Assembly (NCBI GenBank): GCA_045863295.1
Contig: BTWA01000008.1
Location: forward strand, 123,774-187,773
Direction: 5' to 3'
DNA length: 64,000 nt
Origin: Candidatus Hydrogenedentota bacterium
GTDB taxonomy: Bacteria; Hydrogenedentota; Hydrogenedentia; Hydrogenedentales; SLHB01
The notes below the pieces were generated by a model. The model had not been told where the DNA came from. It made no database searches and worked only from the letters and a program-made list of their open reading frames with translations. Every line of letters begins with the position of its first letter. Positions within the stretch are counted from its first letter, which is position 1. The position numbers were made by a program, and so were the translations under genes. Positions 10,315 to 57,561 of this stretch are shown one piece after another.

Positions 10315-10330
10315 AGCAATCGGCGCGCCA
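10315..10330 (-). promoter_or_regulatory. sigma54 (-24/-12) promoter of the FG-GAP giant gene
   Basis: Minus strand TGGCGCG-CCGA-TTGCT versus consensus TGGCACG-N4-TTGCW. Confidence 0.8.
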
Positions 10331-10416
10331 ATCTTTGGACGTAGAGCTATCTTATTTGCCTGCAGTCACTTGGAAATGGAAAGCGAATTTTGCCTTGCAG
10401 CAGGAATGGCGGCAGA

Positions 10417-10433
10417 TGTTCAGTAATTGAACA
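10417..10433. promoter_or_regulatory. Putative enhancer (UAS) palindrome TGTTCA-N5-TGAACA
   Basis: TGTTCAGTAATTGAACA, 87 bp upstream of the -24 element; same motif as at 27510-27548 and 31824-31862. Confidence 0.7.
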
Positions 10434-10858
10434 CGATCTGACCCAAAAAGCCTTGGGCAATAACCGTAAGTCAATACCTTTGATTTCGTTATGACTGGTT
10501 GTTCTCAGTCGTGCTTGGTGTGTCCAGTTGAATCCAGATCTTGTACACCTACCGGCAAGCTTTCGCAAAGGCAGTGTTGAATAGAGTTGAAATTGAACTC
10601 TGCTATTTTCAATCAAATGCTCTGCTTGGGAGGTAAGTTCGAGATGCGAATGTGGATGGGATGATTCAGGCGTTGCAGCATGAGGCGGGGTTTACGCGGC
10701 GGGGTTTTGGGGGGTGGGGAGATTTGGTGGAGTGTGCGGGTTGATTACCGGATGTGAGGTCGCTTTCGATGGGGGTGTTGGCATTTGACCTGAGTCACGC
10801 TGTCGTGCCAAAGCCGTTGGTTTCGCACAAACGTACAGAGCGGGACTCAGCCCCCATT

Positions 10859-13054
10859 TTATTGCTGAGATGGTCTGGAAGCGGCCGATGGTTCGGGTTG
10901 GGTGTATACCTCCAGTTTGCCGTCGAGCGTTGTGGTCACACTGATTCGGGTCAGTTGCGTGCCTGTAAGGTGGTAGAGTCCGTCTTTGGTGCTTAGTACC
11001 ATTCCGTGATCGGTTGAGTCGATTTTGGAGATTACTTTGGGGACGTTGACGTGCTGCGCGTGATTGCTTTTGCGGTCGATTCGCCAGAGGCCCGCTGATA
11101 CATCCTCTCCTTCGGGTCTGTTTGCCGTTCCCAGCCAGATGGCGTCGCGGTCGACGTGGATCGCGGTCGTGGAATACGGTATCAGCTCATCGAGGTAGTC
11201 GACGCGATAGGTCTTGGTGTCGAGGTTGAAGTAGCCCAGTGCGCCGATGCCGGTTGTGCCCTCTCCGTCGTAAAAGGAGGTTCCGAATATGACTTCGTTT
11301 CCGTATACGGCATAGGCTCCGATGTCACATTGAATGGTATATCGATATTCCTTCTTCCCGGGTCTGGCAACCGCGGTGTACTGGGGGCGCTTCGTTTCCA
11401 GCAGGCTGTACTCTGGGGGAGGCAGTTCATGGAACGACAGGGAATCTCCTTGTATCAGGAGAATTCCCGGCGTCAGTTTGTCGTGGTCTTCCTTCATGCT
11501 CATGTCGACAACCAGCATCTTCATGCTATCCGGTTGTTGGGCGTTGATGGGCTTGGGCCGATTCTCTTCGGGCAAGAGTATTGTTTGCTGGCCGGACATT
11601 GAGGGCAGAACAATTTCAAATCCGCCGCGCGGACCGATTGATGTATCTTTCGTTGTGCGGCCGGGGGCGATTCCGATTTCCCGCGGGTTCTTTTCCAAAC
11701 GCCACGCGCCGTCTTCCAACACGCAGGCTGCGGCAGGCCCGCTAAAGACCAGCGCATTGCCGGCAATGTCGACAGCGGTTAGTCTCGGCACGGGTTGCCC
11801 GTCGATTGTCTGAATGAATTCAGGTTGCACCGAATCTGAGTCCACGGTGACCTTGAGAATTCCATGGGGAGCCGACTCTTTCCATGAGCGATCGGAAATT
11901 ACGCCGGCGCAATAGTAGGCATCTTGAAAGCGTGTGGAGGCCAAGCAGTTGAAACCCCATGGGTATTCTTTTTTGCCGATGAGTTGCTGTTGTTCGAGAT
12001 TGAAGAAGTACCTGATTTTGCCTTGTGGAATGCCGTAAAAATCGTCGGTAATGACGAATGTGGCGGAGGTATGGGTCAGATGGTCGAGGTCGTATCCATG
12101 AAGTTCGCCATAGCCTTTTTCAGTCGTGCGATATCTTGTGAGTACGTCCATAAGCAGCCAGGGCTGATTCGAGCCGGTCTTCATGGCGAACAGGCCCATG
12201 ACGGTGCGTTCTTCGGGGAGCACTTTGGTTTCCGTCCGATTCACGCTGACAGTGGCGAGCGCGTATTCGCTGGTTATGGGCGTTGTCACTATTCCTTCTG
12301 CTACTTGGGTTATGGCGGGGTCACGCGCCTGCAATGCCTTCACGAATTCCGTTTCGGGCGCCACCCAATCCTTCAGGGATCTTATTTGGCCAGTCTCAGG
12401 CGGGATATCGCGCACGCACACGCGGATCATCCAGATTTCAAATTGGCGGTGTTCCTTGTCGAATCCGTCCAGCGGCAGGGTGATTGAGTTGAAGCCGGAA
12501 GACGGATTCTCATCGATGCCGAGGCGGATGCCAGTAGAAGGATTGCATTTGAGGGCGATGAAGAACATCTCGGGCACTTCAACGGCAGGTGTGCTGAATG
12601 TATACCACGCGGGTTCCGGGCCTTTGATCGCTGTCGCAGGGAAGTCGAGGGTGAGCAGTGTTTGGCGTTTCTGATTCAGGATACGCAATTGAACTGTGTC
12701 CCGATCGTGAATGGGATGGGCGTCGCGTGACGCGAAGAGGTATACCGCTATCACATGACGCTTGGATTCCGGTGCTTCGAACTCGACTGCCGGCAACGAA
12801 TCTCCCACCTTGACCCAGTGTTCAGCGGAATCATCGTCGCGGGAGAGGATTACGGCGTCTTTGGGTGCTTGATCCGGGGGTGAGGGCATGGGCGTCCCGG
12901 TGTGCGACTCCGTTGCCGCGATGGGCGGATCGGCAGCCGGACTTACCGGAATGCAAACTGCGGCCAATGTACAGGCCACTGCAAACAGGCGCCGAACCGG
13001 GCGAGGGCCTGTCATTGAATGGCAATTTCCACGCCAGACCGCGATTGTGTTCAC
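10859..13054 (-). CDS. Hypothetical exported protein (731 aa), beta-rich, possible C-terminal propeller
   Basis: Long ORF, GAGGAG upstream of GTG, signal-like RRLFAVACTLAAVCIPVSPAA; no family recognised. Confidence 0.7.
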   Translation of the reverse strand: MNTIAVWRGNCHSMTGPRPVRRLFAVACTLAAVCIPVSPAADPPIAATESHTGTPMPSPPDQAPKDAVILSRDDDSAEHWVKVGDSLPAVEFEAPESKRHVIAVYLFASRDAHPIHDRDTVQLRILNQKRQTLLTLDFPATAIKGPEPAWYTFSTPAVEVPEMFFIALKCNPSTGIRLGIDENPSSGFNSITLPLDGFDKEHRQFEIWMIRVCVRDIPPETGQIRSLKDWVAPETEFVKALQARDPAITQVAEGIVTTPITSEYALATVSVNRTETKVLPEERTVMGLFAMKTGSNQPWLLMDVLTRYRTTEKGYGELHGYDLDHLTHTSATFVITDDFYGIPQGKIRYFFNLEQQQLIGKKEYPWGFNCLASTRFQDAYYCAGVISDRSWKESAPHGILKVTVDSDSVQPEFIQTIDGQPVPRLTAVDIAGNALVFSGPAAACVLEDGAWRLEKNPREIGIAPGRTTKDTSIGPRGGFEIVLPSMSGQQTILLPEENRPKPINAQQPDSMKMLVVDMSMKEDHDKLTPGILLIQGDSLSFHELPPPEYSLLETKRPQYTAVARPGKKEYRYTIQCDIGAYAVYGNEVIFGTSFYDGEGTTGIGALGYFNLDTKTYRVDYLDELIPYSTTAIHVDRDAIWLGTANRPEGEDVSAGLWRIDRKSNHAQHVNVPKVISKIDSTDHGMVLSTKDGLYHLTGTQLTRISVTTTLDGKLEVYTQPEPSAASRPSQQ

Positions 13055-13198
13055 GCCCCAAGTCTCCTCTTCCCATTGGAAATGCCGCCGCGATCATTTC
13101 CGAGTGACAGACAACAGGGTTGCGCGTTTACGCGCCGCATCGGTGGATTGCCTGCGCAAGGCTTTCACGCGTTCTGATCGCGGGCAGCGAGTAATGGA

Positions 13199-13440: not shown

Positions 13441-13461
13441 TGCTTACGGTCTACCGGTTCA

Positions 13462-15015
13462 TTAGAATCGAAGGCCGATATCCATATACAGGTAGTCGGC
13501 GTCGTCGTTTCCAGAGCCTCCGCTGAACTCTTGTCCGTAACGATGCAGGAAACTTCCGTCTTCGAGTCCTTGTCCGGTAAACAGGTGCTCCCAACCAATC
13601 TTGAAGTAAAGGTCTTCGGAATATTGGTAGTTCACCCAAAGATGAGCACTGACGCCGATCTCCTCATTTGATTCTTCGGTCCAGAAACTGAGTGCTGGTG
13701 CGATCGGAATTTGAAACGGTCCAAAGGCCGCGGCGACAGGGGCGTCAAATGCTTCGTCGACGGCGAAATAGGCTATCGTCAGTCCGCTGCTTACGGCGTC
13801 GGTAGGATGCACGACCGCACCACCGCGTGCTTGCCAGAAGTTGGACATATCCTGTCCGATCTCAAGGATCAGGCTGTATGGCTTTCCGGGAAACAAGCGG
13901 TTAAAGGACACACTGGCATCCGGCCGGAAGAACGGGTTGATCCAATCCGCAAACGAGAGAGCGCGGTTGTCTTCGCCTTCAAAGTAGGCGCCGCCGATAA
14001 AGACGCGCGGCTGCCACGCGATATCAAAGGTGTAGCCGACTTCCAGATCGCCTGCCCAGGCGTCGAATTCCGCATCGTCGTCGCCGTAGATTTGGCCGTT
14101 TGGCACGAAACCGGAGCCAATTCGGCCGGCGTCGCCAAATTGGTAGGCCACTTCAAGGTCGTAGTCGACCCGGCCGACACCTCCAAACAATCTTGCGCCG
14201 ATGGTGTGCATCTGCGTTGGGTCGTAGTTATCCAGATCCAGGAAGTTCTCTACCCATTCAATGGGAGCGGCGAAGTTTGTATCGTTCAGCCGCTGCGCAT
14301 CGCGAACAAGCAGCCAGTATGCAGAGATACTGAGCGCATCCATGGCCCGATACGTTGCGTATATTCCATAAAAGTCGGTGTCGCCGTCTTGTTCCAGCGG
14401 GCTGGTGTCGGCGAGCTTACTCCACCAAGCATCGACGTCGATCTTATCCGTGCTGTACGTCAGCCGTATCGCGTCAAATGAACGCCCCATGATCGCCGTG
14501 GTAATGTCGTCGACCAGCCACCCTTTGCCCATCTTCATTTCCTGGCGGCCAATGCGCAGGCGCAAAGGAAAGGAAAATAACTCGTTGGCCTCGATGTATG
14601 CCTGGTAGACTTCGACGTCGTTGCTGCTGACGGCACGCGAGTCGAATCCGGTCACGTAATTGGAGCGGAAGTCTTCACCCCAGATATCGAACGATTCGAG
14701 TTCGATGAAAGCCCTGACCTCGTTGGTAAAATCTGCGTTTACATTGAGGCGGGTGCGCTGTTCCACAAAACCCAGATCATTCTTTTGACTGTTCCAGTCG
14801 TACCTGCTCACCGTACCGAACGGACCGATGGCGCGGCCAGGCAGAAAAAAGTTTGGAATCTGAATTTCACCCGGTCCATTGATGGCGGAGACATAGGTGT
14901 TGTCCCAGTGTCTCGCGCGAATGCGGATCTCTCCGCCGATATCCACGTTTTGCAATTCCGCGGCCGCTGAAAACGCGAACACGACCGACAAGACTACGGC
15001 ACTGAGTTTGGACAT
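13462..15015 (-). CDS. Alginate-export-family outer-membrane beta-barrel porin
   Basis: Signal peptide MSKLSAVV..SAAA (ATG 15015 after GGGGGAG); GEIRIR, EQRTRLNVNA, YQAYI, RIGRQE, SFDAIRL motifs; C-terminal Phe. Confidence 0.85.
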   Translation of the reverse strand: MSKLSAVVLSVVFAFSAAAELQNVDIGGEIRIRARHWDNTYVSAINGPGEIQIPNFFLPGRAIGPFGTVSRYDWNSQKNDLGFVEQRTRLNVNADFTNEVRAFIELESFDIWGEDFRSNYVTGFDSRAVSSNDVEVYQAYIEANELFSFPLRLRIGRQEMKMGKGWLVDDITTAIMGRSFDAIRLTYSTDKIDVDAWWSKLADTSPLEQDGDTDFYGIYATYRAMDALSISAYWLLVRDAQRLNDTNFAAPIEWVENFLDLDNYDPTQMHTIGARLFGGVGRVDYDLEVAYQFGDAGRIGSGFVPNGQIYGDDDAEFDAWAGDLEVGYTFDIAWQPRVFIGGAYFEGEDNRALSFADWINPFFRPDASVSFNRLFPGKPYSLILEIGQDMSNFWQARGGAVVHPTDAVSSGLTIAYFAVDEAFDAPVAAAFGPFQIPIAPALSFWTEESNEEIGVSAHLWVNYQYSEDLYFKIGWEHLFTGQGLEDGSFLHRYGQEFSGGSGNDDADYLYMDIGLRF

Positions 15016-15212
15016 GATGTTTTCTCCCCCTGCTTCGTTCGAGTTCCCCTTCGAACGACTAACCCCCTCTGGTCCCCAATACTGGAGATCAATATTCATT
15101 ATTGTTACACAAATCCGTATTTACCGCAAGTCCCGAATATTTCGCTATTCATGCCGTTATTTCGACGATACCCCGGGGCCGTTTTGAGATTGCGGGACGC
15201 AGGATACGTTGT

Positions 15213-18200
15213 CTAGCTTACCCTTGATAGTCTGCGGTTTCTGGCTGAACACAGTCCCATCACGGTCATGGCTATCAGCAGAGCGAACAGGTCTCCGAAT
15301 CCGCTCATAGAGGGTACGTTTTGTTCGATTCCTACGGGGCCTACGGCTATCAAACCACCGTGGGTGAGGGACACGGCTAGATGGTCTTCGTTGAATTCGA
15401 TACCGGAAGGGCCACCTAGGAGCATGCCTTCCACCATTTCAATTGGGAACCAACCGGGATCAGAGGCGTCCGCGAGATAGCAGTAAACAGCATGCTTGGA
15501 TGGATCGTACGTTCCGGGAATCGTCACCAAGAGTGAACGTGTATCCGCCTGGGGTCCATCCGGATTTGCGAACATCGGGTTCATCATACCTTCCGGCAAC
15601 GTCACCACGCTGGCGGGATCGGGGAGTTGGTTGACGACACTAAACGTAAACGCTTGGGTTTCGATTCTCTCCTCGTTCCAGGTATTGCAGGATGCAATGA
15701 ATGTCACTTCATCGCCCAACGTCCATGATGATTCTGGCCGGATAACGACCCATCCGTCAGTGTTGTCTGTTCCTTCAATTGGTTGCCACTCGAATTCAAA
15801 CGGAAGCCCGAGTGGGGCTTGCAAATCCACCCGAATGGATTGGGTATCCAACGGAGTGCCGGCCCGTAAACGGAGTGCGATGGTTCCATCCGGGGTCAGT
15901 GCTCGCATCCGATCACCAAGCGGGACTGCAGGCAGAGCGGCTTCGAATGCGATACGACGTGTGCGATTGCCGGTGTCCGCGTCTTTGGTATCTGGTAGTT
16001 TGACGAATCCTCCGTCTGGATCGGACCATGGTCCCTTGGAGCCTCCGACACCCAGCGCCTGGACCCAATACACGGTGTTGACCTGATTGTATGTAGTTCC
16101 ACCGCCGCCGCCGCAACCGCCGCCGCCGGGTTGTGGGGTTTCGGTGGGAGGCGGAGCCTCCAAATCGTCGTAGGTGGTTCCAGTCACGTCTTTGACCTGG
16201 ACGGCTTGGCCCAGATCCCAGGAGGAGGTAGCGCGCATGATTTTGTAGCCGGTAGCATTGGGCACTGGTTGCCATGTAAGGCGAATCCGATCCACGAATT
16301 CACCGTCACTGGCGGACAGTCCAGTGGGTTTCGCCAAGGTGGCTGGCGTATACGTAATGGTGCGCGTCGCCGGTTGATTCGGCAGCACGTCGACTTCAAT
16401 GACGGGGTCGACTGACCACCCGGCCACGTCGCTCATTCTTATTGCATGCTTTCCTACGACGGTTTCGACCGTCTGGCCGGATTCCCGCCAGGGCCCGGTT
16501 GCATCGAGTTGCCACCGCGCCGTAGCCTGGATGTCCGTGGGAAGTATGTGGATGGTCAGATTGCTTTTCTGCCGAGCGTATTCGATGTCCAGGTCGGTTA
16601 TTTCCTGATTGCGCACTTCAACATTGGTCATGGGAACCGGGGTGGCCCATCCGGATACGTCTTGGAAGTTCACCGTATAGAACCCGGCGACAAGGCCGGT
16701 CAGCGCCTCTCCGCTGTTGTTCCAATTTCCACCTTCAATCTTCCATTGCGGGGCGGTTTGCGCGTTTCCTTCCAGTCGCGTCGTGATTTTTAGTGTGCCT
16801 TTGTGTTGTATGTATTGGGCAGTGCGCACGACAGGCGTATTGACTGAGACATTGATGTCTATGCTGCCGGGTGTTGTCCAATTGGCTACATCTTTAAACG
16901 CGATGCGATGTGGACCCACCGGCACGCCATTAAGCGTAGTAGCGCTGACTTGCCATTCGCCGTCGTCCAAGCGCCAGCGGGCGTCGGCGGGAAACGGTAC
17001 ATCAAGCGTGACTTGTACGGTGGCCGTGTGCGGTGTGTAAGCACCTTGAACGACTATGGGGTCCCGGCCCTCGACCGTGACTTCTTGATTGCCGGGTTTC
17101 GACCAATTCGGGACATCGCTGAACTCAACGGTGTAATCGTTGGGGCGCAGACCGCCGACGATATCGCCGTTGTTCCTCCAGTCGCCGTTCAGTATTCTCC
17201 ACTGTGCGCCGGCCAAGGCAGGATTGTCCGGAAGGACAACGCCTTGTATTGCTCCGGGGACTTCATAGTCCGCTGTCACTTCGAGCGTGTCGTTTTCTTG
17301 GACGGTAACCTGCATCGGAAGGGGCTTGAGCCAGTCTGTTACTTCCGTAAACGTGACCACATGATTTCCCACTGCCAAATCGTTCAGCAGGTGGCCGGAA
17401 TCGAATTGATCAAGACCACCGTCGAGCATCCATTTTGCGCCGAGGGGAAGCACATCTGATGGTTCAATTGTTATTTTGAGCGAGCCCGTTCGTTCCTGAT
17501 ATTCGCCTTCAATGGTCAGAGTGTCGTTGTCATTGAGTTGGACAAGAATATTTCCGGGCTTGCGCAAGTTTGCCAGCGAGATTTCATTGAAGACGACGGT
17601 ATACGATCCGGCCGGCAATGTGACTTGTTCGCCACTCATTCTCCACACAGAACCGTTGTCGATGCTCCACCTCGCACCGGCGTTGACCGCTTCTTGCGGC
17701 GACAGGTTCATGGTCAACTTACCTTGACTGTAGTGACCGCTAACCGTCGCGGGTTGATTGTGGTTGACGGCAATTGGATTGTCTTGCGGCGCGAGCCACC
17801 CCGGAACTGGCTTATACACGATTGTATAGAGACCGGTCGGCAAGGTCTGAATATCTCCACTTTGAAGCCAGGTCTGACCGCCATCGATACTCCAGCGCGC
17901 GCCCGCATCCCTCGCTGCCTGGGGCGTGATGGTGACCTCCAGTGTGCTGGTGTGTCTTTCATACTCTCCGGAGGTTTGCGTGGGTTGATTGTGAATCACT
18001 GTAACTGACACGGGATCGGGAGAACTCCAGTCCGCTACAGAATTGAACGAAACCGTATAGGGACCGGTTGGCAGCGTGATGGTTGCTCCGCTTACTTGCC
18101 ACGACTGACCGCCGTCGGCGCTCCAGCGCGCTTCCAGCAGATCCACCGGGATCGTAGTGACCTGCAGCGTGCCGGTTTGCCGTGTATAGGTGCCGCTTGC

Positions 18201-24200: not shown

Positions 24201-27038
24201 CGCCGCATTGAAACCATCAATTGCGATAAAATAGGTGGTACCTTCCACCGCGGCAAACGTAGCCTCGCTGATTCCTACGGTGTTCGAACCTCGATTATCG
24301 TTTGCGGCGATTTGAGTCAGGGCGTCGACAGACTCGCCGGTGTAAATCGCAAGCAGAGTGTCAAAGTTGCTGCCAGTCGTATTAAACGTGACACTAGCGC
24401 TTTCGGGAGCGGTCCACTTACGCCAGACAGAACGTCCGCCGGCATTCCCTGCGTGGTTGGGTTCGCCCGTCTCTTTAGACGCATTCAAGTTTGCGCCGGA
24501 GGTCACACCCTGTAATCCACTCACGGACGTGGCGCTCGCGAAGTCGTCGCCAGTAGACACGACAGTCAGTGCCCAATCCAAAGAGACGCCGCCTCTCGCA
24601 TCGTCGTAGCCATCCACGGCAATGTAGTAGGTTTGTCCTTGCTGTGCGGTAAATGCTACTCGGCTGGTATAGTTGCTTCCAAAGTGGGCATTGTCATTTG
24701 ACGCCAAGAGCGAAAGATTATCAACAGAACTGCCGGTATATACGGCAAGCAGGGTGTCAAAGTTGGTGGAGATCGTGTAGAACGAGTAATCGCCGTCGGA
24801 CGGCGCAACCCAACTCCACCAGACAGAACGTCCGCCCGCATTGCCCGCGTGATCAGGCTCACCCGGTTCCTTGGTGGCGCTGTAATTCGTGGCGTATGCG
24901 TTGCCCGAAGCACCTGAGATGCCAATAGCGTCGGCGAAATTGTCGTTGGCCCTGCGCCATCGCAGCGTGGGAATACCCGATGCGCCATCGCGTCCGTCGA
25001 CGGCGATGAAGTACGTTGTGCCTGTCTGGGCATCAAATGTCAATTCGCTTCTATTATTGGCGGAATTGTTTGCATTATCGTTCGACGCAATTTCGCTGAG
25101 ACTATCTACGGACGCTCCTGTGTAGACTGCGAGAAGTGTGTCAAAATAGCTTCCGAATGTATCGAATAGCACCGGCATCGGCGCGCTCGGAGTCCATCGA
25201 AACCAGATGGATCTTTCACCCGAATTCGCCGCATGGTCCGGCTCACCCGCCTGCTTGGTCGCGGATGCCGTCGACCGCGTTATACTCCCAGACTCGCCGG
25301 AGATTTCTACCGCATCGTCGTAGTGGTCGTTGGACGGGCGCCAATTCAGATACAAGGGTGAATTGTACCAGGATGAAACCAAGTCGACAGCTATCCAGTA
25401 TTCCGTGCCTGCGTTTGCGTCGAATGTTACCTCGCTTTCGTAAGATCCGTTGTACGCATTGTTGTTCGAAGTGACTGGGGTCAAAGCATCCACCGACGAG
25501 CCGGTATAGACTGCAAGCAACGTATCGTCGTAGGTTCCAAAGGTATCGAACGTGATCCGAACCGGCGTCGCGGAAGCCCAACGCCACCAAAGCGACTTAC
25601 CACCGGGATGGCCGGCATGATCGGGTTCACCGGTTTCTTTAGTCGCGTAGTAGTTGTATTGTGAAGTGTTTCCTGCACTCCCTTGCAATGGCTGTGCATT
25701 GCCAAAATCGTCATTGTAGAGCGACCAGTTCAGTGTAAAGGCGCCGCCACTCCCACTGTACCGATCAAGTGCGATGAAGTACGTCGTACCGGCCACGGCA
25801 TTGAGAAAAAGACGGCTGCTGCCATATGAAGAAGCAATGGCGGACAAATCATTCACGTCGGTTCCTGTATAAACGGCCAGTAGAGTCGTGAACGTAGAAC
25901 CAACGGTGTCAAATACAAACGTAGAGTCTGAAGGCGCCTCCCAACGCCACCATACCGAGCGGCCGCCGCTGTATCCCGCATGGTTGGGCTCTCCTGCTTG
26001 CTTTGTTGCCAACGCATTCGACCCAGTCGTTTGGCCCGTCGCTCCTGTAAGGCTGATGGCGTTCGCGAAGTCGTCGTTCTCCGGCGGAGTATTGGCAAAC
26101 CATTTCAGCGTGATGGATCCCTGACTTGTTCCTGGGCCGTCAACGGCGATGTAGTAGGTGGTGCCAGTCGTTGCGTTGAAAATGATTTGGCTCTGCAAAC
26201 CAACTGCGTCGTCGTTTGCCCCAACACTGACCAGTGAATCCAGTGCGGAGCCTGTGTAAGCGGCTAGAATCGTGTTAAAGCTGCTGCCCTCGGTATTGAA
26301 AATGCATTCACCTGTAAACGGTGATGTCCATTTCCACCACGCAGATTGTGATCCTTCAGACCCGAAATGGAATGGCTCGCCCGCTTGCCTGGTCGCGGAG
26401 ATATTGGAACCCGAAATCTGTCCCGTGCTGCCGGTAATTTCGATGGCGTCGGCGAAGTTGTCATTTGCTGGCGGAGATTGTTGAAGCCAATTGAGGACAA
26501 TGCTTCCTTGGTTCGACCCGTAGCCGTCCACCGCAATGTAATAGGTCGTACCGGATACCGCCAGAAAACTGATTGCACTTTGGGTGCCTGGGCCGCTGTC
26601 ATCGTCGTTGTCCATAAGCGTGTAATCTTCGATGGACGTTCCGGTGTATGCGGCGAGAATGGTGTCGAAATTGCTCCCCGCGGTATCGAACACGACTAGA
26701 CCGCTAGCCGGAGCGGTCCACTGCCACCAGACTGAGCGACCGCCGGTGCTGCTCCAATGGAAAGGCTCGCCCACTTCGAAGGTCGCGTTTACGTTGGTGC
26801 CGGTGGTTTGACCGTTGCCGCCCACAAGGATCAGGGCTGCTGCAAGGTTGTCGTTTACGGGGGCTTGGGCACGCGCGATTGCACAGGAAAGCGCGGCAAC
26901 AAAGACCAGCGCCAATTTCCGAAGCCAATTCAGAGATGTTGCCGCACGGAACCCGTTCCCGTACGGTGACGGGTCCGCACTTGGCTGGATTGTAGTGTCT
27001 TTACGCCTACTGCAACCGTCGATGCGGAGTCTGGACAT
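15213..27038 (-). CDS. Giant membrane-anchored surface protein (3941 aa): 9 PPC-like repeats, NHL propellers, two clan-CD peptidase-like domains, PPC-like, carboxypeptidase-regulatory-like, about 12 PEGA-like repeats, FN3, C-terminal anchor module + TM
   Basis: 9x ND.F..A...G.N..AT.E.GEP.HAG..G..SVWW.W.AP...FDTLLAVYTG; NHL motifs (GIAVDSDGNVYVADTDNHRV); YLVDHG...YDACESGSF; C-terminal GDLFALLIAMTVMGLCSARNRR. Confidence 0.9.
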   Translation of the reverse strand: MSRLRIDGCSRRKDTTIQPSADPSPYGNGFRAATSLNWLRKLALVFVAALSCAIARAQAPVNDNLAAALILVGGNGQTTGTNVNATFEVGEPFHWSSTGGRSVWWQWTAPASGLVVFDTAGSNFDTILAAYTGTSIEDYTLMDNDDDSGPGTQSAISFLAVSGTTYYIAVDGYGSNQGSIVLNWLQQSPPANDNFADAIEITGSTGQISGSNISATRQAGEPFHFGSEGSQSAWWKWTSPFTGECIFNTEGSSFNTILAAYTGSALDSLVSVGANDDAVGLQSQIIFNATTGTTYYIAVDGPGTSQGSITLKWFANTPPENDDFANAISLTGATGQTTGSNALATKQAGEPNHAGYSGGRSVWWRWEAPSDSTFVFDTVGSTFTTLLAVYTGTDVNDLSAIASSYGSSRLFLNAVAGTTYFIALDRYSGSGGAFTLNWSLYNDDFGNAQPLQGSAGNTSQYNYYATKETGEPDHAGHPGGKSLWWRWASATPVRITFDTFGTYDDTLLAVYTGSSVDALTPVTSNNNAYNGSYESEVTFDANAGTEYWIAVDLVSSWYNSPLYLNWRPSNDHYDDAVEISGESGSITRSTASATKQAGEPDHAANSGERSIWFRWTPSAPMPVLFDTFGSYFDTLLAVYTGASVDSLSEIASNDNANNSANNRSELTFDAQTGTTYFIAVDGRDGASGIPTLRWRRANDNFADAIGISGASGNAYATNYSATKEPGEPDHAGNAGGRSVWWSWVAPSDGDYSFYTISTNFDTLLAVYTGSSVDNLSLLASNDNAHFGSNYTSRVAFTAQQGQTYYIAVDGYDDARGGVSLDWALTVVSTGDDFASATSVSGLQGVTSGANLNASKETGEPNHAGNAGGRSVWRKWTAPESASVTFNTTGSNFDTLLAIYTGESVDALTQIAANDNRGSNTVGISEATFAAVEGTTYFIAIDGFNAAIGNFRLNWSSANAPVNDLFEDAIVITGSNGQSSSTNLGATTEWNEPTYSSSNYSIWWRWTAPLTREYTFTTEGSEFGTLLEVYSGESVDRLTELPISSTSRPEPASRVTVDVVSGITYFIRVSKDYYGTSVGAIVLNWSEMPPPPNDNFANAIQLSGATAQSVVNAEGATGEDGEPDYVYGQRNDSIWWRWTAPADGQVEVNTYGSQYSTLISIVTGNALGGLTVIAQGITIVGFQAIQGETYYIVVDNSDGYVTLNLYGPIDPSSILYEFDRMWPDTPTGGTAYSPSARGIAVDSDGNVYVADTDNHRVVKTDSSGRFLLTWGKYGFDEGEFLGPVDIAVTNQGIVIVADSFHVRLFDRNGAFLTRYVNLQGTAVAGGPDGSGFGIFAGGLIYRANTTDVLAYWAGSGTDIAVGPDGTVYVISGTAIQRFDGVGAPYSSWNVPTTGTLVAVSTHADGSVWVMDNLGVIRKLDNAGNVVLTWNAFGYQFTDMTVDSAGSVYVLGDSQAVQKYHENGTFKKEWGKGGVLPGRFRKPLGVAVASDNSLYVADSENWRIQRRDSTSGIWTSFGTQGTGEGEFDALVDVAITSGGHLFAADNGNDCIQRFDLNGSFQDTWTVSRELVAVSAGPDDTVYAIYSDGFEVFDGVTGALLDEWGEVGYGPAQVYALADVAVLDDGSFYALDAGRRRVIKIAANGDFEFSWGSLWYSSTGTTGYGRFEAPAGLAVTSDGSVFVSDVGGHRIQRFDANGGFLEAFGSYGFDLGQFDTPRGMATDSSHSLYIADSNNFRVQKYRRAQAPLPEPDINRAVLVLGGGPYEGNRLWSATTSAASSAFKAMTQQGIVRTAIYTVSPVINLSLDGDATHDIDAWATNTEVEFSLTQKAIEPVNGEAVDNVVVYLVDHGAPGKFRLNESNEILSESDLATWLNTIQDNISGTLVIVYDACESGSFLESLSLPQYAGRRIIITSTRIEKAANFVANGLLSFSTFFWMQILNGDSVGAAFDRAEQAMTWSGQNPRMDANGNDIDNEQADFDIANAVFIGKGTDRHWEEPDIGNYDPDHSIVGVSESIIWADNIEDEDGIESVWAIVTPPTYSAFFSTMAIIDRARVDMLLQPDGSYEGIYDQFVQEGAYKVDIFALDSNGNTAGPYTTTVHVGAPPTRKAIIVNSADPASPDWDSYDWASKWAYSALTIQTYAPNDIRFLTDLSVNNAYAAPSSTALENAIKQWGAVNTLDLTIYLIGPGTLGGFWLDEGADDLLYWDVFDGWIDDAQDSIPGTVTVICDASGSGSMLGPLKAESGQKRITIASTGAGEVATFASGGVTSFSAFFWIETALGRGVGEAFTNAAEAMRFASGQNAELDDDGSGTYDARLDGIYAGRYSIGTNVVRAGDNPRIGSVSDTITLGPDESSATIWIEDVLTMLTVDYIRAVITPPDGAPAIERMLTETSPDHFEFTYDGYEAFGTYTISITAVDTRGIASDPVGTRVVKPHPQGIQMDAWETDDTIEAAQWIGVDAYPDQQHNFHQAGDLDWVKFYAEAGTVITAETANLGHDCDTVIGLYRDNGVLALPENDNRGLGDLASRVTWQVDSSGTYYAQVRSEDADFGEGNDYALRVWRATAPAVTGKLEIFVLNLASIPVSVAKVSVTGVSTLFAAEQPVESDGSRRFNGLQEGTYNVTIKDAPGYLDQTVLNVTVSESGTTQRVINLTPSTGTIRATMLPSQVLTAGARWQTGDNVWRVSGDPSPQLNPGQYSVSFKPVDGWYTPQNVTAFVTAGIETPVNVTYQQKGYIQVNILPLELAGTAQWQITGRAGSFSSGHTEELPVGNYTVTFSPAAGWNTPSNMPVSASPGTPTPVSGQYVRQTGTLQVSIAPLNLAAAAWSVDGGQTWHTQAETVTLPTGSYTLSFKPVADYTTPADIPVTIVYNQPNQVSAEYIRHTGTLQVATLPANLSAARWSTDGGQTWHTGSATVALPTGPYTVTFKPVDGYSTPSNVSVDIAHNQPSTASGTYTRQTGTLQVTTIPVDLLEARWSADGGQSWQVSGATITLPTGPYTVSFNSVADWSSPDPVSVTVIHNQPTQTSGEYERHTSTLEVTITPQAARDAGARWSIDGGQTWLQSGDIQTLPTGLYTIVYKPVPGWLAPQDNPIAVNHNQPATVSGHYSQGKLTMNLSPQEAVNAGARWSIDNGSVWRMSGEQVTLPAGSYTVVFNEISLANLRKPGNILVQLNDNDTLTIEGEYQERTGSLKITIEPSDVLPLGAKWMLDGGLDQFDSGHLLNDLAVGNHVVTFTEVTDWLKPLPMQVTVQENDTLEVTADYEVPGAIQGVVLPDNPALAGAQWRILNGDWRNNGDIVGGLRPNDYTVEFSDVPNWSKPGNQEVTVEGRDPIVVQGAYTPHTATVQVTLDVPFPADARWRLDDGEWQVSATTLNGVPVGPHRIAFKDVANWTTPGSIDINVSVNTPVVRTAQYIQHKGTLKITTRLEGNAQTAPQWKIEGGNWNNSGEALTGLVAGFYTVNFQDVSGWATPVPMTNVEVRNQEITDLDIEYARQKSNLTIHILPTDIQATARWQLDATGPWRESGQTVETVVGKHAIRMSDVAGWSVDPVIEVDVLPNQPATRTITYTPATLAKPTGLSASDGEFVDRIRLTWQPVPNATGYKIMRATSSWDLGQAVQVKDVTGTTYDDLEAPPPTETPQPGGGGCGGGGGTTYNQVNTVYWVQALGVGGSKGPWSDPDGGFVKLPDTKDADTGNRTRRIAFEAALPAVPLGDRMRALTPDGTIALRLRAGTPLDTQSIRVDLQAPLGLPFEFEWQPIEGTDNTDGWVVIRPESSWTLGDEVTFIASCNTWNEERIETQAFTFSVVNQLPDPASVVTLPEGMMNPMFANPDGPQADTRSLLVTIPGTYDPSKHAVYCYLADASDPGWFPIEMVEGMLLGGPSGIEFNEDHLAVSLTHGGLIAVGPVGIEQNVPSMSGFGDLFALLIAMTVMGLCSARNRRLSRVS

Positions 27039-27399
27039 GTCTTACCTGACTTCCCTTCTCCCCACGACGATATATTGCCTATGGTTCATTCGGTTTTCGC
27101 CGCACCTTGGCAAATCTCGAATGTCGAAAATCTAACGATCGGGATGTTTGCTGCTGATGCCGTCAGCCCGCGAACATCCCGATTGTGTACACCCGCTGTG
27201 GGTGCAAAACGTGTCATGCTCTCTTAAGTGGAGAGTATGGCTGTACCAATCCTGAGCCCGCGCCGCGTCAAATTCGCCGCATGAATCCATCCTTTCCGCT
27301 GTCTCCCAGCCCCGCATTTCTCACCGCGCCAGCGAACGGCGCAGTGAGAAACGGGAACTCACCCCAAGGCCCCATCCCGGCCAAGTGCTGAGTAGTAAA

Positions 27400-27415
27400 G
27401 GCAATTGGCGTGCCA
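27400..27415 (-). promoter_or_regulatory. sigma54 promoter of the 3941-aa gene
   Basis: Minus strand TGGCACG-CCAA-TTGCC; core matches consensus. Confidence 0.85.
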
Positions 27416-27509
27416 ATCGGCAGGAAATCTCGACACATTCATAAGTCATTGCCCCTATTTTGGTTACAAAAAGCCAAGATGTATGCCAACCTGCAATCTC
27501 ATGTGAACC

Positions 27510-27548
27510 TGTTCAGTTTCTGGACTGGATGTGTTCAACTATTGAACT
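27510..27548. promoter_or_regulatory. Tandem UAS palindromes
   Basis: TGTTCAGTTTCTGGACT (27510) and TGTTCAACTATTGAACT (27532): 22 bp apart, the first 95 bp from the -24 element. Confidence 0.75.
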
Positions 27549-27634
27549 TTTTGGGTCTGAGGTATAGGAAATGGGCAGGAAGACCACACTATTTGCTCGA
27601 ACTCCTCACCGTAGAACTAACAACCGCTGTGTGG

Positions 27635-30600
27635 TCACGTGGGTAAGGGAATTCCAATCCAGGTGGCCGATGTGAGCCGTTTTATCCACCCGAAAGTGCC
27701 CCTGTTGTTTCCGGCCCAGACCGGAACGGCGCGTAAGAGAAGTTCGTTCAAGCGGTCGATTGGTATTTGACCAAAACCGGCGCACGCGAGTGACTCTTGA
27801 AGTCCTGGCAGATCTTCTTTAGTCCAGTTGGGACTGCCTTCGCGCGAAAATGCGCGCGAAATCTCGTCGGGCGTGGCCAACCGGTCACGAGAAAGTGTGA
27901 TACTGGCCGGCACGTGGCATTCAAAGAAGGTATTCAAGAGCGTTTCGGCACGTTCAAGCGGCATGCGGGCGGCAAGCGTGTAGTCCATTTGCCACAGTCG
28001 CAATCTTCCTGAAGTCGAACCTGCCACGGCGTGACTTCCGTTGCGGGTAAAGCAAACGGAGGTTTGGGGATCTCCCGGCGCGTTAAATACGGCGGTCATT
28101 TTCCCGGTACGTGCGTCCCAAATGCGGATATCTCCACCTTCCTCCGCGGCGACTGCGTACTTGGAATCGTAGCTCAGGGCGAGTTTGTTGACATTGCCGG
28201 TTTCACCTTCGAACACGCGAGCACATGCCCATGTGCACAGATTCCAAAGGCGCAGGTCGGCCTGCTGACTCCATAGATGCCCACCGGCGGACATCATGTA
28301 CCGGCCATCTCCGCTGATTGAAAGCGATCGGATTTTACCCTTGCCACCCGACAATACGCGCACGCAGTCTCCGGTGGCAGGCGAGTACACGCGGATGGCG
28401 CCGTCGGAACAGCCCACGAGGAGGTACTTGCCGTCGGGCGTCCAGACCAGGCAGTCGGACTCGACCGATGTGCTTGTGATGGCAATGAGGCATTGCGATG
28501 TAGCGAGATCCCAGATGCACAAGTCAATTCCACCGATGGCGGCAAACCGCGGATCGGGACTCATGCAAATCGCTTCAATCTGTGCCAACGCCGAGTTGCC
28601 GGCTATCGTCCTGATGCGACGCCCGGATCTTAGCTCCCACAGGCGCACGGTTCCATCCGAGCTTCCGGAAAGGAGAAAGCGCCCGTTGGATGCAGAACAC
28701 AAGCAGGTTATGCGATCGGAATGCCCGTGTAATTCCACGATCATACGTTGCTCAAGCACATCCCAAACCGCGATTTTTCCGTCTTCACCACCGGTCGCCA
28801 GAATACGTCCATCCCCTACCGTGGCCATGCTGGTAATGGCGCCTGCGTGTTGTTCGAGGTCCGCATACTCCCAGCACCCCACGGAATCAAGGCGTGGAAG
28901 TTTGGTGTAGAGTTCGGTCCAGACACGCATGGCTGAATTGTTTCGTTCGTACCCTTTGACTTCGCGTGCCAGCCTGGCCTCTTGCCAAGCGCGTTCCCAC
29001 TCCGAATCAGCCATGGCTGATTTGACATTCGCAAGGTGTTTTTCAAAGGTAACCTGATTGGTAATGGCATCTTCGCTGCTAACGGCATGGGAAAGCATTA
29101 GCGGGGCAGGTCGAGGGTTAAGGTCTTTGGATACGCGCCAAGAGAACAGGTTTCCGGACTCGTCGCCCGAAAGGGCATACATGCCCTTTATGCACAGGTC
29201 AACGCTCGTAACGGGATCCTTGTGCCCCTCTAACGTGCAAAGGCAACGGCCGCTGCTTGTTTCCCATAGGCGTAATGCGCCGTCCGCCGATCCTGAGACC
29301 AATACTCGTGCATCAATGGAAAGGGCAATACTTTTGACGGGTTTCTGTCCGTATTGGAATGTCCTGACACATTCGACGGTATTGAGATCCCATAGTTTTA
29401 TTTGACCGTCCACACCGGACGAAGCGAGATATCGCCCGGAAGCGCACACCGACAAACCAGTTACATGGCATTCGTGCGCCAAAAAGGAAAGTGTGGTTTC
29501 TTCGGACTTCAGATCCCAGATTCGGACACTTCCGTCAATACTGCCTGAGATCACGATTCCCAATTCAGGTTGAAATGACATGCAATTCACGGATCCTCGA
29601 TGACCGCGGAGTACAGTGGCTCCGGAGACGCCTTCCACCCGCCAAAACCGCAATGCCGCGTCTTCGTGGCCCGAGACTATTATGTTTCTCGTTGTGGACA
29701 AGGCGACACACGAAACCGTGCCGCCTTTGCCGTCCATGTCGCGAATGCATTCAGCGCGGCCAATATCCCACAGGCGTACCGTGCCATCGACGCAACCAGA
29801 CAAGGCCACAGTACCGTGCCTGGACAGATAGACGGACGCAACGGACTTTCGGTGACCTTTGAGCTTTCGCACACAATTTCCGGTCTTCAAATCCCACAGC
29901 TTGACGGTATTGTCTTTGCTTCCCGAAAGCGCATACCGGCCGTTTCGACTGATTCGCGCACTGCTGACGCCGTCACGGTGCGCGGCGATAATTCGCTGTA
30001 ATCCGCGACCTTCGTCTTTTGCGGCCTCCCAGGTTTCACGCAAATACCGTGAGGCTTCGTCGTGAGATTCTCCTGTACTCTTGAATTCGCTCAACGCCGA
30101 CGAGTAGTCTCCGCGTTCCGCATGAATCATCGGCAGGACTTTGTTGACCAGTTGCCGGCCATTTTCCGAGTTTCGGACGGGATGTAGCAGATCGATCAGG
30201 TCGGTATCGGAGATTGCGCCCTTGCGCCATCGTAGTAGCCCCAGGTTGTATGTGGATTCCGCGTGCCCAGGAGCGACAAGCAAGGCTTTTTTCCACTGTT
30301 CAATGGCCTTGTCGTGTTTGCCTAGGTCCATTAGGGAGACGGCCCTGTTATTCATTCCGGTCGGAGGGTGAGTTACATCCGGGGGTTGAGCTAGCGGAAA
30401 GGCCTCATCCGCGACATCCTGGTACAATTCCTTCAGTGCCTCTGCAGGCTCCAGTATGCTTGCTGGCCTGCTTCGTACTTCGTCCTGACAACAGTGCCAG
30501 AGGACTTCAAACAGTCTTGCCGGGACAAGTGGAAGCAATGGGCCCGGTCGCTGACCCCGAATGCATTTTTCAATTGCCGTGCGGCCATCCGGCCCGTGCT

Positions 30601-31465
30601 TCCACATACGAGCGCCGCACAACATTTCGAATACGCACAATGCCCAACTCCAAATATCCGTTGCAGGAGTAAGGGGATGAACTAGCGCTTGTTCCGGGGA
30701 ACAGTATCCGGGGGACATGCCGTAAATGGACATTTCCGCACTGTCGGTCTGGCTTTCCATTTCCTCCAGTTGGGAGAACGCTTTCGCAAGGCCAAAGTCA
30801 GTGACCTTGGCGGCGCCTTCTTTGGTGAGCAATACGTTACCGGGCTTGACATCAGCATGTATCAAGCCCTTTTTGTGTGCAAACGAGAGCCCCCAAGCGA
30901 GCTGAATGGCAATGCGCAATATGCGCGCGAGGCAATCCGGACTCTCATAGAGCGATTTCGAGCGGACCGCCTGTTGCAGCGTGCCTCCTGGAACCAGTTC
31001 GGCAAAAATACGGGGCACACCGCCAAGTACGCGAACGTAGTAGCAGGTGGCCACTTGTGGATGCAGCCCGAGGTGGACCCAGTGCTCGCATTCGTGTTTG
31101 AACGCGCGCGACCGGTGTTTGTCTTTAAAGAAGCTTGCAAGTGGACTCTTTACTGCCAGCATGGTATCCCACTGGCGATGATAGACGGCATAGACCTGTC
31201 CCATTCCCCCTTTGCCAAGAACATCCCTGACTTCATAGGTATTCAGGATCAAATCTCCAACTTGCCACTCCACCTGACAGTCGAGAGGAGGGTCCGGAGA
31301 GCTTGGTTGCATGGGACAGGAGCCGTGTACAACTGTATCCGCCACGGCTTCGTTCAATGGAAACGCATGGCCACATTGCGCACAGTTACCGCCCTTCTGA
31401 GGACCGCCCTCGGCGTCTGAAGCGGCGTAACCGCACGTTGGACAGGATTGGACCGGCTTGTTCAC
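27635..31465 (-). CDS. Ser/Thr protein kinase with N-terminal Zn ribbon, TPR and about 14 WD40 repeats
   Basis: CPTC..CAQC; LGKGGMGQVY, LAVK, HADVKPGN, DFGLAK, YCSPEQ, DIWS; many (G)H...V..V...SGS.D.TV.LWD repeats. Start uncertain (GTG 31465 or 31639). Confidence 0.9.
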   Translation of the reverse strand: MNKPVQSCPTCGYAASDAEGGPQKGGNCAQCGHAFPLNEAVADTVVHGSCPMQPSSPDPPLDCQVEWQVGDLILNTYEVRDVLGKGGMGQVYAVYHRQWDTMLAVKSPLASFFKDKHRSRAFKHECEHWVHLGLHPQVATCYYVRVLGGVPRIFAELVPGGTLQQAVRSKSLYESPDCLARILRIAIQLAWGLSFAHKKGLIHADVKPGNVLLTKEGAAKVTDFGLAKAFSQLEEMESQTDSAEMSIYGMSPGYCSPEQALVHPLTPATDIWSWALCVFEMLCGARMWKHGPDGRTAIEKCIRGQRPGPLLPLVPARLFEVLWHCCQDEVRSRPASILEPAEALKELYQDVADEAFPLAQPPDVTHPPTGMNNRAVSLMDLGKHDKAIEQWKKALLVAPGHAESTYNLGLLRWRKGAISDTDLIDLLHPVRNSENGRQLVNKVLPMIHAERGDYSSALSEFKSTGESHDEASRYLRETWEAAKDEGRGLQRIIAAHRDGVSSARISRNGRYALSGSKDNTVKLWDLKTGNCVRKLKGHRKSVASVYLSRHGTVALSGCVDGTVRLWDIGRAECIRDMDGKGGTVSCVALSTTRNIIVSGHEDAALRFWRVEGVSGATVLRGHRGSVNCMSFQPELGIVISGSIDGSVRIWDLKSEETTLSFLAHECHVTGLSVCASGRYLASSGVDGQIKLWDLNTVECVRTFQYGQKPVKSIALSIDARVLVSGSADGALRLWETSSGRCLCTLEGHKDPVTSVDLCIKGMYALSGDESGNLFSWRVSKDLNPRPAPLMLSHAVSSEDAITNQVTFEKHLANVKSAMADSEWERAWQEARLAREVKGYERNNSAMRVWTELYTKLPRLDSVGCWEYADLEQHAGAITSMATVGDGRILATGGEDGKIAVWDVLEQRMIVELHGHSDRITCLCSASNGRFLLSGSSDGTVRLWELRSGRRIRTIAGNSALAQIEAICMSPDPRFAAIGGIDLCIWDLATSQCLIAITSTSVESDCLVWTPDGKYLLVGCSDGAIRVYSPATGDCVRVLSGGKGKIRSLSISGDGRYMMSAGGHLWSQQADLRLWNLCTWACARVFEGETGNVNKLALSYDSKYAVAAEEGGDIRIWDARTGKMTAVFNAPGDPQTSVCFTRNGSHAVAGSTSGRLRLWQMDYTLAARMPLERAETLLNTFFECHVPASITLSRDRLATPDEISRAFSREGSPNWTKEDLPGLQESLACAGFGQIPIDRLNELLLRAVPVWAGNNRGTFGWIKRLTSATWIGIPLPT

Positions 31466-31713
31466 GCAGAATTCCCGCACCGATACGCGCCGTCGGGCCG
31501 GATACTGGGATTGCGAAGTAACCTCTGCCTGTACAGAATCAAGGCCCGTGGGATGTTGGGCTGAGCCTGTTTGGATTCTTCCACGGTCACCGACGGGTAT
31601 GGCTGCCAAGCTGCCGTCAAAACGAATCCTCCCTATCACTTCTCAGCACGAATTAGGTCCACTTGAGATGGACGCCGTCTGGCGCACGACGGAAACCAAT
31701 AGGCACAAGAAAG

Positions 31714-31729
31714 GGCAAATCCCGTGCCA
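31714..31729 (-). promoter_or_regulatory. sigma54 promoter of the kinase-WD40 gene
   Basis: Minus strand TGGCACG-GGAT-TTGCC. Confidence 0.85.
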
Positions 31730-31823
31730 ATTCGGCCGATTGAGTCGTCACACTGTAAGTGCTTTTCAGTACAGAGCTTATCGCTTATAATGCCTATTGG
31801 CCTAAATGCATTTATAGTAGTGC

Positions 31824-31862
31824 TGTTCACTTTCTGAACACTTCATGTCCAATAAATGGACG
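31824..31862. promoter_or_regulatory. Tandem UAS palindromes
   Basis: TGTTCACTTTCTGAACA (31824) and TGTCCAATAAATGGACG (31846): 22 bp apart, the first 95 bp from the -24 element. Confidence 0.75.
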
Positions 31863-34229: not shown

Positions 34230-34243
34230 GGACAACGGGGAGA

Positions 34244-55449: not shown

Positions 55450-55450
55450 T

Positions 55451-57561
<2,111 letters not shown>

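Follow-up and report, generated by a model that had tools for sequence, protein, structure and literature searches.

The window analysed here is a stretch of 64,000 nucleotides from contig BTWA01000008.1 of a Candidatus Hydrogenedentota bacterium. It holds three sigma54 promoters with upstream palindromes, their predicted target genes, and a three-gene module built around a kinase and a sigma54 activator:

1633-10206, minus strand: target 1, a 2857-aa exported protein with FG-GAP repeats and a C13-peptidase-like stretch
10315-10330, minus strand: sigma54 -24/-12 core of promoter 1, TGGCGCGCCGATTGCT
10348-10372, minus strand: YAA-N19-TTR element of promoter 1, one mismatch, between core and enhancer
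10417-10433: enhancer palindrome of promoter 1, perfect, 86 bases upstream of its core
10467-10491, minus strand: perfect YAA-N19-TTR element of promoter 1, in an unusual position upstream of the enhancer
10531-10547: weak second enhancer-like site of promoter 1, 200 bases upstream of its core
13462-15099, minus strand: outer membrane protein of the alginate-export family
15213-27038, minus strand: target 2, a 3941-aa exported protein with PPC, NHL repeats and a C13-peptidase-like stretch
27400-27415, minus strand: sigma54 core of promoter 2, TGGCACGCCAATTGCC
27442-27466, minus strand: YAA-N19-TTR element of promoter 2
27510-27526: proximal enhancer site of promoter 2, two mismatches
27532-27548: distal enhancer site of promoter 2, one mismatch, after a 22-bp step
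27635-31639, minus strand: target 3, a Ser/Thr kinase with WD40 propellers
31714-31729, minus strand: sigma54 core of promoter 3, divergent from the kinase-activator genes, TGGCACGGGATTTGCC
31756-31780, minus strand: YAA-N19-TTR element of promoter 3, at offset -51 as in promoter 2
31824-31840: proximal enhancer site of promoter 3, perfect
31846-31862: distal enhancer site of promoter 3, TGTCCA type, three mismatches to TGTTCA
32040-34229, plus strand: receptor-type Hanks Ser/Thr kinase with intact catalytic motifs and one transmembrane helix near residue 317
34172-36070, plus strand: FHA-GAF-AAA-Fis-HTH sigma54 activator, the likely binder, with loop GSFTGA and recognition helix SRTTLYSK at 36023
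36175-38355, plus strand: ELWxxDGT-repeat propeller protein, third gene of the module, above the TIGR04534 cut-off

The original prediction, made from the letters alone, had placed three sigma54 cores at 10315, 27400 and 31714 and palindromes starting at 10417, 27510, 27532, 31824 and 31846; all were found there, the cores on the minus strand. These are the only strict sigma54 cores in the window, and each has GG at -24, GC at -12, fixed spacing and an intergenic location. The palindrome had been given as TGTTCA-N5-TGAACA. Its shape stands, but base 4 is not fixed as T: the window's ten half-sites have seven T and three C, the motif reads TGT(T/C)CA-N5-TG(A/G)ACA, and 31846-31862 is a good palindrome when scored as TGTCCA type. 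A LexA-type box, TGTTC-N4-GAACA, was considered and rejected on its spacer, which is N7 in the window's sites. The single architecture proposed for all three promoters describes promoters 2 and 3 well. In both, 94 intervening bases separate the proximal site from the core (the predicted 95-bp offset), the second site follows 22 bp further, and the sequence between the elements differs, as had been noted. Promoter 1 fits less well, with a single strong site at another distance (86 bases) and phase; no partner was found at +22 of 10417-10433, and the weak site at 10531-10547 scores 11.2 against 20.9.

The original prediction did not include the YAA-N19-TTR element between enhancer and core, which resembles the IHF consensus and may be an IHF-type site. 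It occurs in 31 of 49 promoters against 3.8 expected, with enrichment at spacer 19 only, and the genome encodes three IHF/HU proteins.

Throughout the genome, a site with at most one mismatch lies 70-160 bp upstream of three of the 27 perfect cores, and these are the three promoters described here. By comparison, 7 of 4857 intergenic 90-bp windows contain such a site; the resulting P of about 9e-6 is post hoc because the motif was derived from these very sites. The objection that the motif might be equally frequent in random intergenic DNA does not hold, because a matrix derived only from sites outside the window places these promoters at the top of 2590 candidates. In a motif-blind scan of this genome, the motif was common to the top 4 of 407 cores. 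Outside the window the genome holds three further candidate targets, among them a mini Fis-like protein, and the single PF04552 match (E 2e-63) identifies one rpoN gene. Strict patterns were also run on 135 genomes: a single site plus core matched in 4 of them, and the tandem TGTTCA pattern, which also misses the known site of locus L077, matched in this genome only, and is therefore unusable as a test of other genomes with a T86 activator (Thr86, Fis numbering).

The putative activator carries a sigma54-type AAA domain (PF00158, E 2.5e-62) with Walker A (GETGTGKE), Walker B (LFLDE) and arginine fingers (FRPDLYHRL), an N-terminal FHA domain (PF00498, E 1e-17) and a Fis-type HTH (PF02954, E 7e-12). 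It starts about 70 bases later than the open reading frame, since the gene on record encodes 608 aa. Its loop, GSFTGA, keeps the F and T of GAFTGA and is shared by 5 of the genome's 25 activators; among 137 family members, 2 have GSFTGA versus 104 with GAFTGA. A GSFTGA loop can be active, but the variant's rarity in the family weighs against our reading. Of 31 aligned rows, 30-31 keep the FHA-domain residues that bind phosphothreonine (G-R, S-R-x-H and N). Only this activator among the 25, of which two have an FHA-GAF arrangement, has high-scoring promoters within 10 kb, with scores of 36.9 and 35.8 where no other activator exceeds 20.5, so the uncharacterised bEBP to which the motif had been ascribed now has a likely identity. 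The name NifA, which JGI gives to relatives, was rejected (TIGR01817, 283 against a cut-off of 529 bits).

The kinase and activator reading frames touch or overlap. The outer domain of the kinase, modelled with a pLDDT of 86, matches CBM9 structures (E 1e-6), and the ELWxxDGT protein is likely an outer co-sensor, although this is among the least certain points of our reading; a literature search on ELWxxDGT found nothing.

The C-termini of targets 1 and 2 both have a hydrophobic segment and a basic tail. The true start of target 1 is probably the ATG near 10182. Target 2 has a leader of roughly 360 nt; a scan of 26800-27700 for sigma70 promoters and terminators found none, an Rfam scan of the window gave no match at the gathering score, and one of the candidate RNA in relatives gave nothing credible. 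The outer membrane protein at 13462-15099 is possibly co-transcribed with target 2. In target 3, a transmembrane segment was looked for and none was found. We rejected the idea that the giant proteins as a family form a sigma54 regulon: of 26 rows, 5 have a core with at most one mismatch, and in 4 it lies upstream of the ORF.

The same tandem promoter architecture was found at 47 of 136 activator loci in Hydrogenedentota, namely the window and 46 relatives, and was absent from the fetched stretch at the other 89. A motif-blind tandem-palindrome scan of activator loci gave scores of at least 22 for 45 of 280 cores, versus 0 of 277 control stretches further upstream. The negative control was a set of 52 loci from a related-locus search on named genomes, which had found only generic activators belonging to other phyla; in this set 0 of 257 cores carried the motif. 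Sites in the family are spaced 21-24 bp apart, most commonly 23 (29 of 49), and their distances to the core cluster at 82-84, 91-98 and 102-111 bases. The best period of these distances is about 12, not 10.5, in a test that kin inflate, and we therefore make no claim of helical phasing beyond the clustering. The set of kinase, ELWxxDGT protein and activator recurs at 26 of the 136 loci, and its gene order varies. Linkage to the kinase is not universal, because the fetched stretches show no such promoter at the 89 loci and no matched kinase or propeller gene at 90.

The family also allowed us to relate the letters of the sites to the protein that would read them. The Fis-type dimer shape originally suggested for the palindrome agrees, in its 17-bp geometry, with the Fis-DNA contacts in the accessible text of Hancock et al. 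(2016, PMC4784862), where Arg85 reads G at +/-7, with T at +/-8 and an AT-rich centre; the last 50 residues of the activator align ungapped to Fis 48-97. E. coli Fis, by the same text, differs in having Gly86 and in reading mostly DNA shape, whereas in the window's family the bases at +/-5 and +/-3 change with residues 86 and 90. Half-site bases track the recognition-helix residues R/K85, S/T86 and R90 (Fis numbering). The rules were fixed in writing before the held-out loci were fetched, and they held in 26 of 28 loci for residue 85, 26 of 27 for residue 86 and 19 of 28 for residue 90. Two of the held-out R85 loci have T at base 2. C at base 6 was present in all 14 held-out R90 loci and in 0 of 14 others; the expectation of A6 in the absence of R90 was wrong at 9 of 28 loci, where E90 and some other residues give G. 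T at base 4 accounts for 12 of 20 half-sites in five other T86 loci and for 2 of 156 in 38 S86 loci; T86 is also the residue of the window's activator. For T86 and for V86 there were two held-out loci each: those with T86 satisfied the rule only by a tie, 2 of 4 half-sites agreeing, and of those with V86 one did not satisfy it. On an approximate tree that leaves out the HTH, independent contrasts ran in the predicted direction or showed no difference, almost never the reverse; after this correction for kinship they comprise 3, 4, 3 and 6 pairs, with a median p of 0.25, and no residue-base combination is significant by itself.

Among mini Fis-like proteins, position 85 is R in 1 of 17 and position 87 is T in 2 of 17, compared with R/K at 85 in 125 of 128 activators and T at 87 in 122 of 128; position 87 is instead acidic in 8 of 17. 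At a dimer-helix position, 11 of 17 have R/K where 102 of 105 activators have E. The candidate target on contig C7 is a divergent member without the DNA-contact residues. Such a protein might pair with the activator's DNA-binding domain and be unable to read DNA, the mode of the Id proteins of eukaryotic bHLH factors; a literature search on dominant-negative Fis-like inhibitors returned nothing relevant. Extended to Hydrogenedentota at large, this would give sugar-sensing kinase/FHA-activator/sigma54 switches, insulated by a three-residue code and each shut off by a self-induced mini-Fis partner that does not read DNA, a picture that we offer as speculation and think unlikely.

For the window itself, we are fairly confident that the neighbouring activator is the likely binder of the palindromes and would switch on the two giant surface proteins and the second kinase once the adjacent membrane kinase is triggered. 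That kinase would be triggered from outside, probably by a carbohydrate-type signal, and its phosphothreonine might dock on the FHA domain as the on-switch; this docking and the ligand of the CBM9-like domain are among the least certain points. Two activator dimers would bind sites about two helical turns apart, Arg85, Thr86 and Ser90 (Fis numbering) specifying G2, T/C4 and A6. An IHF/HU-type protein may bend the DNA at YAA-N19-TTR, and the AAA ring would remodel the sigma54 holoenzyme.

The signal could instead enter through the GAF domain that the activator carries, as a small ligand, or through one of the genome's other large kinases, two of which are candidate targets, leaving the CBM9-like kinase as a co-regulated neighbour only. 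The 90 loci without a matched kinase or propeller gene favour this; the conserved phosphothreonine-binding residues, the touching reading frames and the recurrence of the three-gene module in more than one order speak against it, and we regard it as possible, if rather unlikely. That the sites are enhancers read mainly by another activator seems improbable to us. The most plausible such reader is the second FHA-GAF protein, on contig C3, whose helix SRATLYN has R85, T87, L88 and Y89 in common with the window's activator and which could share its sites; the half-sites TGTACT, TGATCA and TGACCA, present among the candidate regulon promoters, could mean overlapping specificity. However, the best promoter score within 10 kb is 12.3 for this paralogue and 20.5 for the 23 other activators, and in relatives a T at base 4 accompanies T86, where the paralogue has A86. 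Its own motif was looked for and not found.

Two further readings deny that the palindromes are enhancers of a dedicated activator. They could be sites of a Fis-like nucleoid protein or a repressor overlying sigma54 promoters, as their geometry equals that of a Fis site, 7 of the 17 best matrix matches in the genome are called coding (8 of the 18 checked once C18 is added), and one intergenic match (C14) has no core nearby. Yet across the phylum the letters of the sites change together with the helix of the activator beside them, the distances from the core cluster as for looped enhancers, and the palindromes lie too far upstream to block the core, making this very improbable. The identical offsets of promoters 2 and 3 (94, 22, -51) could also mean that both come from a single promoter that was copied. 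An origin by chance or local duplication is nevertheless scarcely credible and largely refuted, given that the sequence between the elements differs and that the architecture returns at 46 other loci and at three further places in the genome.

A link between FHA-bearing sigma54 activators and Ser/Thr kinases has been proposed. Myxococcus xanthus has enhancer-binding proteins of this kind, reportedly described by Jelsbak, Givskov and Kaiser in 2005. The likeness lies in the domains and extends to the Myxococcus-type hallmarks of a neighbouring Hanks kinase with intact catalytic motifs and FHA phosphothreonine residues. The window's module differs in its FHA-GAF input, CBM9-like receptor kinase, ELWxxDGT protein and phylum, and in that a predicted binding motif can be given for it, along with target promoters and residue-base rules.

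The PEP-CTERM system PrsK/PrsR offers another comparison. According to the accessible text of Haft et al. (2006, PMC1569441), it pairs a membrane kinase with a Fis-type activator, a 17-nt motif, sometimes repeated, lies upstream of the sigma54 core, and the surface targets end in a membrane segment and basic tail, all as in the window. In PrsR, however, a receiver domain stands in place of FHA-GAF, its partner is a histidine kinase and not a Hanks kinase, and the motif, which ends in TTTACA, has a spacer of 63 nt on average, versus 86-94 in the window. Identity with PrsK/PrsR was rejected: the activator scores 307 on TIGR02915 against a cut-off of 503, the window's motif does not match the TTTACA box, and a PEP-CTERM profile search of the window's targets gave no match. 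The accessible text of Nie et al. (2019, PMC6615313) describes TGT-N10-12-ACA enhancer motifs for Clostridiales activators, NifA and FhlA, sharing with the window the motif shape, multiple sites and an activator gene beside its targets, and reports that motif similarity follows DNA-binding-domain similarity; that text contains neither the word FHA nor a residue-level code. The accessible text of PMC11407668 has nothing on such a code, and PMC12316311 and PMC3162934 have no occurrence of "FHA", although supplements may hold motif tables. The accessible literature on Hydrogenedentes and sigma54 yielded no FHA activator.

Ser/Thr kinase input to sigma54 transcription has been proposed since 2005, but we know of no worked-out case that comprises an activator with its kinase, sites and targets. 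Candidates for each of the four are present at this locus and could be reconstituted in E. coli. The promoter design, a sigma54 core with upstream activator sites, is textbook, and the new part is the residue-base code together with the mini-Fis targets. The code amounts to predicted, easily testable DNA-reading rules for a little-studied kinase-linked switch. Because it predicts how single changes would retarget a sigma54 activator, it can help to forecast the regulons of bacteria that have not been cultured and to design orthogonal switches. The mini-Fis targets, in turn, suggest an undescribed feedback on these activators.

The three sigma54 cores (10315-10330, 27400-27415 and 31714-31729; promoters 1, 2 and 3) and the five palindromes lay where the original prediction had placed them, all read on the minus strand, with a long minus-strand ORF downstream of each core. 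The single architecture proposed for them held for promoters 2 and 3, which have identical spacing (the first site lies 94 bases from the core, the second 22 bp further on) and also share a further element at -51. It was less true of promoter 1, which has a single perfect site at 86 and a weak second site at 200. The perfect palindrome has three copies in the 6.3-Mb genome, two of them inside the window. Sites with at most one mismatch stand upstream of 3 of the 27 perfect cores in the genome, all three being the window promoters; the background, in a post hoc comparison, was 7 of 4857 intergenic windows. About 360 nt separate core 2 from the first ATG of its 3941-aa gene, and this leader (27039-27399) contains a GC-rich hairpin near 27320-27350; searches of it for ORFs, terminators and Rfam families gave nothing convincing.

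The three promoters would drive two giant exported proteins, each with a C-terminal anchor, and a WD40 kinase. Divergent from promoter 3 are three genes:

32040-34229, plus strand: Hanks kinase with one membrane helix
34172-36070, plus strand: FHA-GAF-AAA-Fis-HTH activator
36175-38355, plus strand: ELWxxDGT propeller

The kinase's outer domain had no match in Pfam; its predicted model (pLDDT 86) matches CBM9 structures, to which Atlas likewise pointed. A weak third enhancer-like site (31941-31957) scores 10.6; it lies 83 bp before the start of the kinase and may serve autoregulation. The genome also encodes RpoN, three IHF/HU genes and 25 activators. The giant proteins (1633-10206 and 15213-27038) belong to a large paralogous family of 26 ORFs in this genome, with a common C-terminal domain of about 280 aa, a membrane segment and a basic tail, no PEP motif and, in many members, a C13-peptidase-like stretch; the C-terminal part is possibly a lineage-specific surface-sorting signal. 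Just beyond the end of the 2857-aa gene lies a SAM-like integrase N-terminal fragment (603-1085). Elsewhere in the window (39871-46310 and 53875-60125) are CusA/B/C-like RND efflux genes and a nucleotide-sugar epimerase/dehydratase cluster with a PMT-type glycosyltransferase, whose products might glycosylate the surface proteins.

Proteins of relatives carry the names Candidatus Hydrogenedentes or Hydrogenedentota. Among the phylum's 135 genomes, at least 87 have the FHA-GAF family (about 190 matches, of which all but 43 were listed). We took 140 loci; 136 loci, the window included, contain a full activator. A motif-blind scan, which fixed no base and required a pair of similar 17-bp palindromes spaced 21-24 bp, scored at least 22 at 45 of 280 cores and at none of 277 control stretches. 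With the cut-off set to 21.5 and one AT-rich match in locus L164 removed, it gave 49 tandem-palindrome promoters in 47 loci and found none in the other 89 of the 136. None of the 257 cores around 52 unrelated activators carried the motif. Of the 25 activators encoded in the genome, the window's is the only one with promoters of this kind inside 10 kb. Binding of this activator to the palindromes is strongly suggested. In L052 and L060 (genus g45) the FHA-GAF part is an ORF of its own (about 310-330 aa), with the AAA domain not in frame. Other sigma54 cores of the genome (C35:54782, C5:142798, C14:58728 and C12:64470) carry variant sites such as TGTAAA and TGTACA and precede a large kinase or further anchored proteins; they could belong to the second FHA-GAF activator, on contig C3.

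Between enhancer and core, 31 of the 49 promoters carry a YAA-N19-TTR element that the original prediction did not describe, against 3.8 in shuffles; of the spacers between 10 and 27, only 19 gave this pattern. In promoter 1 a copy with one mismatch occupies the usual position, and a perfect copy lies upstream of the enhancer. The element's position and length would suit an IHF/HU bending site.

27442-27466: YAA-N19-TTR, promoter 2
31756-31780: YAA-N19-TTR, promoter 3

The Fis-type HTH shape suggested for the palindromes agrees with the Fis contacts described in PMC4784862: Arg85 reading G at +/-7, a contact to T at +/-8, and the need for an AT-rich centre. On the Fis alignment, the activator's last helix reads S84 R85 T86 T87 L88 Y89 S90 K91. 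Three rules linking residues to half-site bases were noted from the first 60 loci, and 80 more were fetched afterwards, 28 with sites forming the held-out set. Base 2 (R85 with G, K85 with T) was predicted correctly in 26 of 28 loci. Base 4 (S, T or V86 with C, T or A) was predicted correctly in 26 of 27, 23 of them S, with both T86 loci and one V86 locus being ties and the other V86 locus failing. C at base 6 occurred in 14/14 R90 loci versus 0/14 others. The corollary, A at base 6 whenever residue 90 is not R, broke down in 9 of 28, since E90 and certain other residues go with G. T stands at base 4 in 12 of 20 half-sites from five other T86 loci versus 2 of 156 in S86 loci; the window's activator has T86, and its half-sites have seven T and three C. 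Kinship matters for these counts, ten K85/R90 loci being one genus: independent pairs numbered 3, 4, 3 and 6, with the predicted direction in 2.7, 2.9, 3.0 and 3.5 and the opposite in 0 to 0.1, no single contrast being significant. As background and not as a test, the NtrC helix and site agree with the same rules.

With a regulon matrix built without the window's sites, tandem scores reached 22 at 4 of 2590 genome cores (promoters 2 and 3, C7:7712 and C18:44433) and at none in controls. Allowing three core mismatches brought in C28:28327, at a score of 31.9, and a match on C10 that is doubtful. In relatives, the recurrent predicted targets were mini Fis-like proteins, a 60-aa family, kinases and exported proteins of large size, and terminated transcripts without an ORF.

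C18:44433: candidate target, upstream of a Ser/Thr kinase, a CsgG-like gene and a FadL-like gene
C28:28327: candidate target, upstream of a probable lipoprotein and an anchored protein
C7:7712: candidate target, upstream of a 72-aa Fis-like mini protein with no Pfam match of its own
L229:3781-3996: the contig C7 mini Fis-like protein, in the window's genome
L077:5256-5474; L195, L222, L054, L044, L050, L037, L217 and others: mini Fis-like proteins (alignment A4)
L077:5026-5211; L189, L034 and others: 60-aa family (alignment A5)
C59:19864-20007 and C4 near 193000: 60-aa family in the window's genome
L048:3885-4185; L175:6544-6845; L214, L215, L176, L058; also L178, L180, L190: ORF-free transcripts

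The mini proteins, stand-alone Fis-like HTH proteins of 60-90 aa directly after enhancer-sigma54 promoters, gave 20 matches in 19 loci (two on the wrong segment or weak), and 12 of 17 match HTH_8. They lack R85 and T87 and have Arg/Lys for the dimer-helix Glu, which would suit a dominant-negative partner, a candidate feedback inhibitor of the activator. The 60-aa family, a predicted target in 23 loci, has an invariant Thr within T-x-S-R and no match in Pfam. It occurs in 88 of 135 genomes, many without the activator, and forms 397 clusters in a large library; the copy on C4 comes with a sigma54 core of its own. It is possibly a kinase substrate or FHA ligand. The ORF-free transcripts (250-310 nt), predicted to start from the activator's divergent sigma54 promoter, have conserved hairpins with compensatory changes at 10 of 41 pairs, mostly in the terminator. 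Rfam gave no match for them, and they are candidates for a new small RNA.

The promoter design of sites plus sigma54 core is standard, and FHA activators are reportedly known from Myxococcus. TGT-N10-12-ACA motifs are common among activators according to PMC6615313. The closest functional parallel is the PEP-CTERM box, as described in PMC1569441, but activator type, motif and sorting signal all differ from it. Literature searches, most subscription papers aside, turned up no comparable motif, code or module.

Alongside the observed sites, genes and site-residue co-variation, the most likely overall chain would run from kinase to sigma54 opening. The kinase step is proposed because the FHA residues are conserved and the three-gene module recurs in 26 of 136 loci, but 90 loci have no matched kinase or propeller nearby. 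An outer signal would cause the kinase to dimerise and phosphorylate threonine, and FHA docking would then free the AAA domain. An AAA ring would assemble on the paired sites, the DNA would bend at YAA-N19-TTR, and the sigma54 promoter would be opened, so that surface proteins and further kinases would be made.
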